Assembly: GCF_050920415.1 (NCBI RefSeq)
Contig: NZ_CP169309.1
Source of the DNA: Escherichia coli
Lineage (GTDB): Bacteria > Pseudomonadota > Gammaproteobacteria > Enterobacterales > Enterobacteriaceae
Strand: one strand, 5' to 3'
Length of the DNA: 64,000 nt
Under the pieces are notes generated by a model that worked only from the letters and a program-made list of their open reading frames with translations, searched no databases and had not been told where the DNA came from. Below, one piece after another: positions 37,261 to 40,796 of this stretch (its first letter is position 1; each line of letters begins with the position of its first letter). The position numbers and the translations under genes are program-made.

Positions 37261-37290
37261 GGCGTAAAAAATCCCCTCCGGTGAGGGGAT
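37261..37290 (-). terminator. rho-independent terminator upstream of the pinholin (possible tR')
   Basis: On minus strand aatcccctcaccggaggggatt followed by ttttttacgcc. Confidence 0.6.
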
Positions 37291-37523
37291 TTGCTTATGT
37301 AAACATTTACACTGCTTACCTGCATGGTGCCGGGTGCCTCCCGGTGAATTCAGTATCAGCACCTGAATCCGCAATTATCCCATATACCTACTTGCTGATT
37401 GCCCCTCCGCACAGGGGGATTCACCATGCGAAATTTTTTTAACAAATGCTCAGTCTGACAGGCAACTGTCAACTGGCTGAATTGTGAGACATTTAAAATT
37501 TTCGGGGCGTAACTGATACCCGG

Positions 37524-37688
37524 TTAACTACCTGGCATGTCCTTTTTCACCAAAGGAAAAAGCACCACCACAATACCGACCACCAGCACTCCATCCGCCA
37601 GCACCGACATGATCCTGCTGGTGAAATCCACCATCACCACCAGAAACAGCAGGAGTGCCACAGCGGCCAGACGCAGTTTTACCGTCAC
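37524..37688 (-). CDS. 54-aa hydrophobic peptide translationally coupled (GTGA) to the TerB-like gene
   Basis: (V)TVKLRLAAVALLLFLVVMVDFTSRIMSVLADGVLVVGIVVVLFPLVKKDMPGS; GTG overlaps the TerB stop. Confidence 0.4.
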   Translation of the reverse strand: MTVKLRLAAVALLLFLVVMVDFTSRIMSVLADGVLVVGIVVVLFPLVKKDMPGS

Positions 37689-38116
37689 AGGTGGTTCTCC
37701 AGTCGCAGGCCAAGAACACCAGCAATCTCTTCCAGAACCTTACGCTCTTCCGGCTCAATTTCACCATCTGCTTCAGCAATGGCCACCGCCACATCCAGCA
37801 CATCTTCCGCTTCACGCGTATCGTGTTTCACATCTTCAATTTCACGCAACGCTGCACGACGACCAATTTTAAAATTGGTGTCAAGCTGACCTGTGATCGT
37901 GGCACTGATGGCATTAATTTCTGACGTAAACGTGGACAACGCTGGCTGGTTACGTAATACCTGTTCGATCTTCGCTTTCTCTGAAGTCTCACATTCACCA
38001 TCTGCATAGGCCACTAGGTAGGCAGCATTAATAACCGCCTGTGCCAGATCGCGTTTCTCAAACTTTTTAATTTCAGTTGCTGCTCTGCGGGTTTTCTTTT
38101 TGAAAATACCAAACAT
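37685..38116 (-). CDS. TerB-like (tellurite-resistance TerB domain) protein
   Basis: 143 aa; acidic helical pairs with ...AVAIAEADGEIEPEERKVLEEIA... typical of the TerB fold. Confidence 0.7.
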   Translation of the reverse strand: MFGIFKKKTRRAATEIKKFEKRDLAQAVINAAYLVAYADGECETSEKAKIEQVLRNQPALSTFTSEINAISATITGQLDTNFKIGRRAALREIEDVKHDTREAEDVLDVAVAIAEADGEIEPEERKVLEEIAGVLGLRLENHL

Positions 38117-38289
38117 CGTGACTTTTCCTTTTAGTGGGTGAGCCTGCGCCCTGCGGGGACCAGCCCACAGAGAAAGTCACACTGACCATCCCGTAAGCTC
38201 CCCCCTGAAAAGCTCTGTGGTTTTTGATATACGCCGGGCGTGGCGCGGATACAAAAAAGGCCCGCAAAAGCGAGCCAGGAAAATAAGTA

Positions 38290-38366
38290 TGGCGCGTTGT
38301 ACTGGATTCGAACCAGTGACCGATTGCTTAGAAGGCAATTGCTCTGTCCGACTGAGCTAACAACGC
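38290..38366 (-). tRNA. argO: tRNA-Arg (anticodon UCU), phage-borne
   Basis: RC gcgttgttagctcagtcggacagagcaattgccttctaagcaatcggtcactggttcgaatccagtacaacgcgcca; anticodon loop cttctaa. Confidence 0.75.
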
Positions 38367-38379
38367 ATGATGCAGATAA

Positions 38380-38460
38380 TGGACCGCCATCGAGGACTCG
38401 AACCCCGCACCAACAACCCTGTTATCGTGTCGTCTGCTCTTCCTGATGAGCTAATGGCGG
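38380..38460 (-). tRNA. tRNA-like gene with atypical anticodon arm (argN-like position)
   Basis: Good acceptor (ccgccat/atggcgg), D arm (gctc/gagc) and T arm (cgggg-ttcgagt-cctcg). No canonical 5-bp/7-nt anticodon stem-loop (81 nt). Confidence 0.45.
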
Positions 38461-38467
38461 TACGTTA

Positions 38468-38542
38468 TGGTGGCCCTGCTGGATTTGAACCAGCGACCTG
38501 GCGATTATGAGTCGCTCACTCTCACCACTGAGCTAAAGGGCC
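38468..38542 (-). tRNA. ileZ: tRNA-Ile2-like (anticodon CAU, ileZ/ileX type)
   Basis: RC ggccctttagctcagtggtgagagtgagcgactcataatcgccaggtcgctggttcaaatccagcagggccacca; loop ctcataa as in ileX. Confidence 0.7.
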
Positions 38543-38582
38543 GGGCGCAGGATAATAACGGTACGTAACTAATTCTGCAATA

Positions 38583-39641
38583 TCATCCGTTCTGACTGAC
38601 TAAATCCTGAACTTCCTTGACCGTCTGCTCAAAACGCTCAGTCTCCAGCTCAACGCCAATTGCACGACGTCCCAGCGCCATCGATGCTTTGACCGTCGAA
38701 CCCGACCCCATGAAAAAATCTGCAACCAGATCTCCCGGACGACTGCTTGCGCTGATTATCTGCTGCAACATTTCTGCCGGTTTTTCGCACGGATGTTTCC
38801 CGGGATAGTACTGCACCGGTTTATGCATCCACACATCGGTGTACGGCACCTGCACAGTCACACCGAAATACCGCCGCAAATTTTTATATTCTCTCAGCAG
38901 TTCCGTATACTGCCGGTTCAGTTCACTGTATGTGCTGACCAGCTGGTGGTGTGGCTGCTCCAGTTCACCGCGCTGATGTTTTTCTGCTGCAACACGCGCA
39001 AACAACGCCTGCAATTTGTTGTAATCAGCTTCGTTCGGTAACTGCCACTGACTGGTACCAAACCAGTGCGAAGCCATGTTTTTCTTTCCGGTGGCTTCCG
39101 CTATCTGTTTTGACGTTATTCCCAGTTCGGCACGAGCATCCCTGAAATACGATATCAGCGGTGCCATTATGTGCTGTTTGAGTTCCCTTTCTTTTGCCGC
39201 ATAGCCGTCACTTTTGCCGCGATATGGCCCCTGGTAATGTTCAGCAAACAGAACGCGCTCTGTGGCAGGAAAATATGCGCGCAGACTTTCTTTATTACAC
39301 CCATTCCAACGTCCGGACGGCTTCGCCCAGATGATATGGTTAAGCACGTTGAAACGTTCACGCATCATGATCTCAATATCAGATGCCAGGCGATGCCCAC
39401 AGAACAGGTAAAGGCTTCCGGCAGGTTTCAACACCCGCCAGAACTGGGCCAGACAGTGGTCCAGCCACTTAAGATAATCTTCGTCCCCTTTCCACTGATT
39501 GTCCCAACCGTTGGGTTTCACCTTGAAGTAAGGCGGATCGGTAACAATCAGGTCAATGGAATCATCAGGCAGGGACTGAATAAAATGCAGGCAATCAGCG
39601 TTGATTAAATCAACACTGTTTATTTTTACAGTATTTTTCAT
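38583..39641 (-). CDS. orphan N6-adenine/N4-cytosine DNA methyltransferase (beta class)
   Basis: N-terminal DPPY motif (LIVTDPPYF) and C-terminal FFMGSGST AdoMet motif; no adjacent REase. Confidence 0.8.
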   Translation of the reverse strand: MKNTVKINSVDLINADCLHFIQSLPDDSIDLIVTDPPYFKVKPNGWDNQWKGDEDYLKWLDHCLAQFWRVLKPAGSLYLFCGHRLASDIEIMMRERFNVLNHIIWAKPSGRWNGCNKESLRAYFPATERVLFAEHYQGPYRGKSDGYAAKERELKQHIMAPLISYFRDARAELGITSKQIAEATGKKNMASHWFGTSQWQLPNEADYNKLQALFARVAAEKHQRGELEQPHHQLVSTYSELNRQYTELLREYKNLRRYFGVTVQVPYTDVWMHKPVQYYPGKHPCEKPAEMLQQIISASSRPGDLVADFFMGSGSTVKASMALGRRAIGVELETERFEQTVKEVQDLVSQNG

Positions 39642-39791
39642 GGATCAGTAAGCGTAACTCTGGTAGGCTCACTCTGCTTTTGCGCTAAAGCAGTGGGCCG
39701 TGGTTCGCTTGTGACCAGTAAGCATGAGCGAATGGCTGGCAGGTGCTACCAACACCCACCAGCCGCCCATTTTCACAGCAGGAAACCGCCA

Positions 39792-39995
39792 TTACTGGCA
39801 GCGTCTGAATTTATTCCCGTACCCGCCGTTATCCTTCGCCAGACCCGCCAGAACTAACTGAGTCAGTATTAACTGGCACCGGACTTCGCTTACTCCGGTA
39901 GTTCTCGTCATCATGCGTGGCGTTACCCACTTGTCAGCAGGTAAGAAATGAAGGACTGCGGCGGCGGTTTCTGTCATATCTTGCTGTTTTAGCAT
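39792..39995 (-). CDS. hypothetical small protein (possible wHTH)
   Basis: MLKQQDMTETAAAVLHFLPADKWVTPRMMTRTTGVSEVRCQLILTQLVLAGLAKDNGGY... Confidence 0.35.
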   Translation of the reverse strand: MLKQQDMTETAAAVLHFLPADKWVTPRMMTRTTGVSEVRCQLILTQLVLAGLAKDNGGYGNKFRRCQ

Positions 39996-40115
39996 GTTTT
40001 TTCCCTTCTGGTTAACATGACATACCAATAACTCTTGTCTAAAAAGCCAGCAAGATAAAAAGTCAGTATTCACGACCACCAGCGTGTTTACTGTACTGCA
40101 CCAAGTTTACAGGTA

Positions 40116-40141
40116 CAAAAAAACCGCTCAGCGGCGGGTTT
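40116..40141. terminator. bidirectional rho-independent terminator
   Basis: aaaaaaaccgctcagcggcgggttt. Confidence 0.55.
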
Positions 40142-40264
40142 AAGTTGTGTGGCGAAGTAACCACTCTTAACAGCATATTTGATTTTTTACGATTGTAAAC
40201 GGTTGATTATTCATCTCCAATAAAAATAATTGTGTAGGTATGCCCTTAACAATGGATAAGAAAC

Positions 40265-40711
40265 ATGAATAAAATGACTGTATTATTACTTAGCGCAACT
40301 ATCATTTCAGGTTGTACTTCTTCCGTACCATTGATAAAGAAAACTCAATCAGGAAAACCTGAGGGGGTTTATCAAAATACGACAAAAGATAAAGTCAAAG
40401 ATGCCCTTGTGAATTACTGCAATAGTAGAGGGTTGATAATTTACAACGCGGATAACAGCAGTGTTATATGTGGTAAAGAACTGGAAGGCGGGTCTGCTGT
40501 TTTTGGACAAATGTTAATCGGCAATGCCTATTCAACAACCCCGGTATCAAAAGTCAGATTTACTATCGCTCAAGTTAATAACGATACAAAAGTGTGGGCC
40601 GATATGTGGATGGAAACTCAAATGGCAATGGGGCAAGTACAACAAATGGCTATAACAGACAACGCAAGCAAAAACACTATCCAACAACGTCTTGATGAAT
40701 TAAAACCTTAA
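40265..40711 (+). CDS. lipoprotein (low-GC inserted gene, convergent with Q)
   Basis: Lipobox LLSATIISGC; 148 aa; GC clearly below the phage average. Confidence 0.7.
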   Translation: MNKMTVLLLSATIISGCTSSVPLIKKTQSGKPEGVYQNTTKDKVKDALVNYCNSRGLIIYNADNSSVICGKELEGGSAVFGQMLIGNAYSTTPVSKVRFTIAQVNNDTKVWADMWMETQMAMGQVQQMAITDNASKNTIQQRLDELKP

Positions 40712-40731
40712 GTAAATTAATTAAATAAAAT

Positions 40732-40754
40732 GGGGAGAAATAAATCGACTCCCC
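40732..40754. terminator. hairpin terminator between Q and the lipoprotein gene
   Basis: ggggagaaataaatcgactcccc; T-rich on the minus strand side. Confidence 0.45.
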
Positions 40755-40796
40755 ACACATTAAACTGATTCAATTACCCCCTCAATAAGAGATCTT

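Follow-up and report, generated by a model that had tools for sequence, protein, structure and literature searches.

In the Shiga toxin (Stx) phage 933W, argO is followed by a terminator, by stxAB, by the small RNA (sRNA) STnc100 75 nt downstream and then by AsxR on the opposite strand (cf. PMC12370729); the order in PPyecE_EH1910 is TerB, DUF3927, STnc100 and AgvB. The STnc100/PasD sRNAs are known from prophages (PMC12370729; bioRxiv 10.64898/2026.05.13.724894), and a 74-nt RNA, StxS, has been described in Stx phages (PMC7547250). The tci gene names of phage P1, in which a TerB-fold TciA is followed by a small hydrophobic TciB, rest on homology only (PMC9603915). M.EcoGII, a prophage-borne methyltransferase of E. 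coli O104:H4, methylates adenine in any context; its constitutive expression is harmful, and its lysogen leaves it silent (PMC5778455). The present analysis compares with these systems an island at positions 37261-40796 of a 64,000-nt stretch of the Escherichia coli contig NZ_CP169309.1 (the window). The island is part of a lambdoid prophage beside prfC and is encoded on the minus strand.

The island very probably represents the leader of the late operon, together with its accessory ('moron') genes, in a lambdoid prophage of the Q933/Q21 type, and is built of modules in circulation among phages both with and without Stx. The order along the minus strand is a DUF968 gene, the antiterminator gene Q, a convergent lipoprotein gene, an open reading frame (ORF) of 67 aa, a DNA methyltransferase (methylase) gene, the tRNA genes, a terminator, TerB, DUF3927, STnc100, an S21-type holin gene and, further on, an endolysin gene (Table 1). 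ORF, tRNA and Pfam scans and the Prokaryotic Genome Annotation Pipeline (PGAP) confirmed that all the elements listed for this minus-strand island in an earlier, sequence-only reading exist where they had been placed, and the PGAP annotation of a RefSeq twin gives the same genes. The pR'/qut/tR' unit, the 67-aa ORF, the terminator past the tRNA genes and STnc100 had been overlooked in that reading. Every module has a close annotated or published counterpart, namely the 933W control elements and tRNAs, M.EcoGII, P1 TciA/TciB, STnc100/PasD and the S21 holin.

The mosaic nature of the island is reflected in the identities of its parts. The module of Q, lipoprotein gene, 67-aa ORF and methylase gene is 95% identical to that of the inducible phage PhiR40_1, where, in contrast to the window, the methylase gene is followed directly by the holin gene. 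The segment from the methylase gene through the tRNAs to TerB is ~90% identical to Stx2c phages (query positions 1061-3800), and the TerB pair shows 97% DNA identity to that of PPyecE_EH1910. The latter shares TerB/DUF3927 followed by STnc100 but is without the lipoprotein and the tRNAs, and carries a toxin-antitoxin-like pair, AgvB and nanS-p. As compared to 933W, the 3' end of the methylase gene with the tRNAs and terminator is 90.6%, STnc100 79%, the holin gene 88% and Q 74% identical at the DNA level. The Q family, pR', qut and first terminator, ileZ, argO, the post-tRNA terminator, STnc100 after the cargo and the S holin are common to both. On the other hand, 933W is without the lipoprotein cassette and the 67-aa ORF, has retained no more than the final ~110 bp of the methylase gene, has an intact argN anticodon arm and carries stxAB where the window has TerB/DUF3927, whereas its nanS-p, L0106 and AsxR are absent from the window.

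A 100% identical copy of the 4.2 kb at window positions 37000-41200 is present in RefSeq in E. coli MFDS1022581 (NZ_CP169399.1, the twin), and copies of 99.5% identity occur in three further strains. At least 80% of this exact combination is carried by only 9 of 5426 complete E. coli genomes, the set to which the genome counts below also refer. When positions 1-50000 of the window were compared to NZ_CP169399.1, the island was identical and the rest only 96.9-99.7% so. The novelty is limited to the particular mosaic, the identical sequence being already in RefSeq, and the significance of the locus as a whole goes little beyond a tidy annotation. A defective prophage, considered from the frameshift flags of the twin, was dropped as a candidate, the window being only 99.3% identical outside the island, and the portal and Rz genes that the twin record marks as frameshifted being intact in the window.

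The control elements of the late operon were identified by comparison with 933W. Q also matches the Q21 chains 6p18/6jnx of the PDB (E 7e-9), and window positions 40200-40112 are homologous to the annotated pR', qut and first terminator of 933W, as evident from blastn and alignment. A block of the qut region, GTTAAGAGTGGTTAC, is kept in both 933W and PPyecE_EH1910. The two components of a Q21/Q933-type late antitermination cassette, a PF06530 Q and a pR'/qut/terminator unit, are therefore present; the unit lies directly after Q in 933W and PPyecE_EH1910 but is displaced 596 bp from Q here. The 933W region giving StxS has no counterpart in the window, and only pR', qut and the first terminator are shared.

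In the lysogen, pR' would fire and RNA polymerase would halt at tR', leaving a leader RNA of ~50 nt. Upon induction, Q from the early transcript would load at pR'/qut, and the Q-loaded polymerase would pass tR', the post-tRNA terminator and the STnc100 terminator and run into S-R-Rz. The late transcript would deliver, in this order, the 67-aa protein, the methylase, the tRNAs with an argN derivative, TciA/TciB and STnc100. Everything from the 67-aa ORF onward is predicted from this layout to belong to the late transcript.

The slot occupied by stxAB in 933W is occupied by TerB/DUF3927 in the window, where the order is argO, a homologous terminator, TerB, DUF3927, STnc100 65 nt downstream and an Esr41-like element on the opposite strand. 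The terminator is inside a 933W-homologous block in which the annotated terminator preceding stx is also found, and STnc100 comes after the cargo in all three phages examined, the gene before it being stxB in 933W and DUF3927 in PPyecE_EH1910 as in the window. The Stx-locus position proposed in the sequence-only reading is hence correct and can be given more precisely, TerB/DUF3927 lying between the argO terminator and STnc100. In a sample of 120 viral contigs with the ileZ-argN-argO tRNA triad, the gene after the triad is TerB, stxAB or nanS-p. STnc100 resembles its family in its full-length match and in its typical site between cargo and lysis genes, and differs from the 933W copy in its score (148.7 against 207.7 bits) and in being followed by the Esr41-like antisense element rather than by AsxR or AgvB.

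When 933W StxA2, StxB2, NanS-p and L0106 were used as tblastn queries, no match was obtained at E<1e-3 in the whole 64-kb window, and no stx remnants were seen. The claim of the earlier reading that toxin ORFs are missing is borne out, and the prophage is not an Stx-converting phage by its gene content. TerB/DUF3927 (TciA/TciB) and stxAB are alternative, interchangeable cargo of one defined slot, which is bounded by the tRNA terminator and STnc100.

The methylase, for which the sequence-only reading had left the specificity open, is a full-length relative of the non-specific adenine methylase M.EcoGII (PMC5778455, PMC11551740), with 302 of 349 residues identical (87%), a value that may shift by ~1% since the M.EcoGII sequence is from a machine-read supplement of PMC11551740 and has a few reading errors. 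Both have the β-class layout of DPPY, central target-recognition region and FxGxG, represented in the window methylase by TDPPY at residues 33-37, a central region and FMGSGS near residue 310, and both have a similar prophage location. The two differ at ~45 residues, and the central region accounts for several of these substitutions. PADLOC matches the methylase to the generic model MTase_II (E 1e-154). The observation that it is without a restriction partner was upheld, as its neighbours are the 67-aa ORF and the tRNA genes, and PGAP annotates no endonuclease over the matching 50 kb in the near-identical record of RefSeq.

By analogy with M.EcoGII, the best reading of the methylase is an induction-only, non-specific enzyme that would hypermethylate and so protect progeny DNA against restriction and, being toxic, would be kept off in the lysogen. 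Since M.EcoGII is silent in its lysogen, the check advised earlier, a comparison of methylation between the lysogen and a cured strain with unmethylated lysogen DNA as refutation, is uninformative. This common prophage methylase is best annotated as M.EcoGII-type, and lysogen-versus-cured methylomes will miss such an enzyme. The 67-aa ORF, first gene past tR', precedes the methylase start by ~350 nt in viral contigs having both, and it has no PADLOC match. In 933W (locus 2470-2580), the ~110 bp homologous to the methylase 3' end (window 38693-38583) lie just upstream of the tRNAs. The arrangement suggests that the StxS region of 933W may have replaced the module of the 67-aa ORF and methylase gene.

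The lipoprotein gene is contained in a 596-bp cassette that neither 933W nor PPyecE_EH1910 has; in both, the homology picks up again at pR'. The cassette is full-length in 184 genomes and is also found in phages PhiR40_1, cdtI and mEp460; its presence in PhiR40_1 makes it compatible with a working phage. The sequence-only reading had the lipoprotein expressed from the late transcript, a view that had to be abandoned, as the gene is upstream of pR' on the opposite strand, inside the inserted cassette, and therefore outside that transcript. The statement that the gene is bracketed by terminators holds geometrically, owing to the hairpin between the two convergent stop codons, but what was taken for the second terminator is tR', which belongs to the late promoter unit and to the opposite strand. 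For the hairpin, the minus strand gives a folding energy of -14.4 kcal/mol with z -2.3, and the plus strand one of -11.1 kcal/mol with z -2.5; the hairpin was unflagged by the consensus terminator scan because its loop is 11 nt.

The protein has the features of a bacterial lipoprotein, with a signal peptide and an ISGC lipobox (MNKMTVLLLSATIISGC) whose cysteine, Cys17, is shared by all of 20 homologues. It belongs to a small family that occurs only in prophages of Enterobacterales. The genes of this family sit at varied sites, in the early region, close to the tail-tip gene or flanked by the tape-measure and minor-tail genes, which is typical moron behaviour. In respect of the characterised receptor-blocking lipoproteins of phages (Cor, Llp type), no sequence match was obtained in Pfam, NCBIfam or the PDB, Cor and Llp themselves not having been compared. 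The gene would be read divergently from its own promoter and hence independently of Q. The lipoprotein is probably made in the lysogen, where it would serve as a surface conversion or superinfection-exclusion factor; a part in superinfection exclusion is plausible. As the cassette illustrates, a lipoprotein moron located between Q and pR' need not displace the control elements.

TerB and DUF3927 form a genuine two-gene unit, conserved in divergent phages, and the GTGA overlap noted earlier is correct, the GTG start of DUF3927 overlapping the TGA stop of TerB by 4 nt. The TerB protein is 42% identical to P1 TciA and 70% to gp6 of an Erwinia jumbo phage, and the DUF3927 peptide, with a grand average of hydropathy of 1.58 and two hydrophobic peaks, is 43% identical to P1 TciB. 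TerB has ADG-like motifs, whose residues D39-G40 and D117-G118 are the same in all four aligned sequences, in agreement with its assignment as a TerB domain. In a second lambdoid allele, whose TerB is 43% identical, a homologous 50-aa peptide and the 4-nt overlap are kept. The pair is also found in P1, Erwinia jumbo phage ChrisDB and Salmonella phage SP-076 (N4-like), and TerB of Pseudomonas phage Zuri has a small ORF after it. Pseudomonas phage AF has an unannotated 73-aa membrane ORF (locus 3432-3653) whose GTG overlaps the TerB stop by 4 nt. In E. coli, 1109 genomes carry the pair, and a single genome may have as many as 8 copies. A wide survey of TerB loci returned only near-identical E. 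coli prophages, and seven lineages were then sampled by hand.

The unit resembles tciA-tciB-tciC of P1 in its TerB-fold TciA followed by the small hydrophobic TciB and in the flanking tRNA genes. It differs in that expression of the P1 unit starts from P1's own early region instead of a Q-dependent late operon, and in that a tciC-like third ORF was not seen in the window; there is no same-strand ORF of at least 30 aa between DUF3927 and STnc100, the 35-aa P1 tciC itself not having been searched directly. In the annotation of the surrounding 50 kb, TerB is the only ter gene, which sets the unit apart from the ter operon terZABCDEF. To our knowledge, no function of TciA/TciB has been demonstrated anywhere. 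Their presence in virulent phages favours a role during infection over a lysogen-only role. The two would be translationally coupled, and the two-segment peptide might tentatively be pictured as holding or partnering the soluble TerB-fold protein at the inner membrane in lytic growth, a possible though rather doubtful arrangement.

TciA/TciB are placed among tRNA genes in three unrelated phage types, namely the lambdoid prophage (window 37524-38543), P1 (locus 916-2576) and Erwinia phage ChrisDB (locus 587-2814). In the 4-kb tci locus of P1, all three tRNAs detected by ARAGORN are within 1.7 kb of tciABC. Three of the seven sampled lineages carrying TerB have no tRNA gene near it, and one of these has none genome-wide. 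Shared accessory hot spots explain the adjacency at least as well as a functional link.

Of the three tRNAs listed in the sequence-only reading, ileZ and argO are canonical, while its 'atypical tRNA' turned out to be an argN derivative with a replaced anticodon arm. The gene was missed by ARAGORN and by the Rfam tRNA model. Its acceptor, D and T arms and CCA end match 933W argN, and its anticodon arm is replaced by another 38-nt core with a longer stem and no 7-nt anticodon loop. A complete ileZ-argN-argO triad of three canonical tRNAs including Arg(UCG) is thus not present, the deviation being at argN. The core occurs in 1257 genomes, with at least 99% identity in 1220 of them, and it is the minority form in a viral contig sample (6 of 122 argN-type genes). 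A second allele of the anticodon-less core, on an IMG/VR contig, shows three transitions (one G.U to A-U and two C-G to U.G), and its predicted stem stays paired. The terminator past the tRNAs is strong, folding with -13.8 kcal/mol (z -3.9).

tRNA-Ile2(CAU) and tRNA-Arg(UCU) would serve the rare codons AUA and AGA/AGG. These three codons make up 17.8 per 1000 codons in 12 prophage genes as compared to 9.5 in 7 flanking chromosomal genes, and 22-44 per 1000 in the genes for the lipoprotein, the 67-aa ORF, the methylase, S, R and Rz. The codon counts lend modest support to the usual rare-codon rationale for phage tRNAs. Three tandem tRNA-Leu(CAG) genes are located elsewhere in the window, at 59618-59940 on the plus strand, ~18 kb past the Q gene.

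Several points weigh against reading the island as the late-operon leader and accessory region outlined above. The assignments of pR' and of the other promoters and terminators are consensus matches and homologies only, and at the identity observed, itself tied to a machine-read sequence, the specificity of the methylase could still differ from that of M.EcoGII. The rare-codon enrichment is only about two-fold overall, and the TerB gene itself is low in rare codons. The AlphaFold2 model of the lipoprotein is confident, but fold searches yield only generic small α/β lipoprotein-like folds. In the earlier proposal, the island combines exclusion or stress functions on the late transcript, namely the lipoprotein and TerB with its peptide, with an orphan methylase marking the lysogen DNA. 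TerB and DUF3927 are indeed downstream of pR', PHROGs classes both as 'moron, auxiliary metabolic gene and host takeover', and the lipoprotein has surface-protein features, some of its homologues lying beside tail-tip genes like known receptor-blocking lipoprotein genes. Against this, the position and strand of the lipoprotein gene place it off that transcript, and the methylase is an orthologue of an enzyme reported to be non-specific and silent in the lysogen (PMC5778455). Moreover, no PADLOC defence model matches the lipoprotein or DUF3927, TerB having one sub-threshold match (E 0.002), and the occurrence of TciA/TciB in strictly virulent phages is at odds with a purely lysogen-protective role; the proposal is considered unlikely.

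A decayed toxin locus, in which stxAB of a former Stx phage was replaced by TerB/DUF3927 or the reverse, would account for the flanks common to 933W and Stx2c phages, but it is rather improbable. The window holds no stx remnants, the TerB pair is widespread in itself, and the pair has stayed intact despite divergence, which fits alternative cargo and not scar tissue. Still less probability is given to the argN derivative being a functional anticodon-less tRNA-like RNA, e.g., a decoy or processing element, and not a pseudogene, with TciA/TciB tied to phage tRNA genes. Its acceptor, D and T arms and CCA end are intact, only the anticodon arm being swapped for a well-paired hairpin, the core is frequent and highly conserved, the three transitions of the second allele preserve pairing, and TciA/TciB adjoin tRNA genes in lambdoid prophages, P1 and the Erwinia jumbo phage. 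However, high identity is expected of recently spread prophage DNA, transitions in G-U-rich stems preserve pairing by default, and the folding z-score is only -1.5. The tie to tRNA genes is further weakened by the sampled lineages without a nearby tRNA gene and by the tendency of tRNAs and morons to gather in variable regions. That TciA/TciB are linked to phage tRNA genes, the argN derivative then being maybe a working RNA such as a decoy or partner in a conflict over toxins that target tRNAs, is accordingly a very remote conjecture.

Table 1. Features of the island and of its immediate surroundings, with window positions, strand and supporting evidence
Feature	Position	Strand	Evidence
Q antiterminator (Q21/Q933 family)	40797-41177	-	PF06530, E 2e-51; PGAP start 41162
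Hairpin between Q stop and lipoprotein stop	40730-40756		U-run on Q strand only
596-bp cassette between Q and pR'	40201-40796		Contains lipoprotein gene, putative promoter and hairpin
148-aa outer-membrane-type lipoprotein (phrog_3152)	40265-40711	+	Convergent with Q
Candidate lipoprotein promoter (TTGATT-16-AATAAT)	40203-40230	+	Inferred from consensus scan only, 9/12 matches; back-to-back with pR'
Late promoter pR' (TTTACA-16-TATGCT)	40172-40199	-	Consensus scan; base-for-base alignment with annotated 933W pR'
qut-like element, initially transcribed region	40151-40158	-	Aligned with annotated 933W qut
tR' intrinsic terminator	~40113-40139	-	Terminator scan match GCCGCTGAGCGGT then T7; aligned with first terminator after 933W pR'
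67-aa ORF (phrog_331), first gene past tR'	39792-39995	-	ORF list, PGAP, PHROGs
M.EcoGII-family β-class N6-adenine DNA methyltransferase, 352 aa	38583-39641	-	PF01555, E 1e-43
tRNA-Ile2 (CAU; ileZ)	38468-38543	-	ARAGORN; Rfam 59.4 bits; PGAP tRNA-Ile; near-identical to 933W ileZ
argN-derived tRNA-like gene, 81 nt	38380-38460	-	Comparison with 933W argN; PGAP tRNA-OTHER
tRNA-Arg (UCU; argO)	38290-38366	-	ARAGORN; Rfam 71.7 bits; homologous to 933W argO
Intrinsic terminator past tRNAs	38259-38276	-	Terminator scan; fold
TerB-fold protein (P1 TciA type)	37685-38116	-	PF05099, E 2e-16; PDB 2jxu, E 9e-8; phrog_632
DUF3927/TciB-type peptide, 54 aa	37524-37688	-	PF13064, E 3e-16; phrog_1470
STnc100/PasD-family sRNA	37260-37458	-	Rfam RF02076, 148.7 bits against gathering score 47; model positions 1-206
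Esr41-like sequence and strong Rho-independent terminator	37103-37193	+	RF02676, 34.1 bits, E 0.001, full model length; antisense to late operon
S21-type class II holin, lysis cassette start	36747-36962	-	PF04971, E 3e-32; PGAP

The Esr41-like sequence after STnc100 was rejected as a member of Esr41, its score falling below the gathering score of 102; the score is low because the terminator loop is enlarged. AsxR of 933W and AgvB of PPyecE_EH1910 are likewise on the opposite strand, directly after STnc100. In the lysis cassette, the endolysin (PF00959, E 3e-24) has a hydrophobic N-terminus, YGLSAAVLALIAAGAPAP, and the two proteins fall into the families of an S21 pinholin and signal-anchor-release endolysin system, which suggests a pinholin mechanism. 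The ORF between holin and endolysin genes (36103-36743, minus strand) is split into two overlapping frames of 154 aa and 108 aa, for which the twin flags a frameshift, and a 118-aa gene (35737-36093, plus strand) lies between this split ORF and the endolysin gene. At ~45044-45532 (minus strand), in the prophage early region, the annotation of the twin places a PerC-family regulator beside a frameshifted N6-adenine methylase gene.

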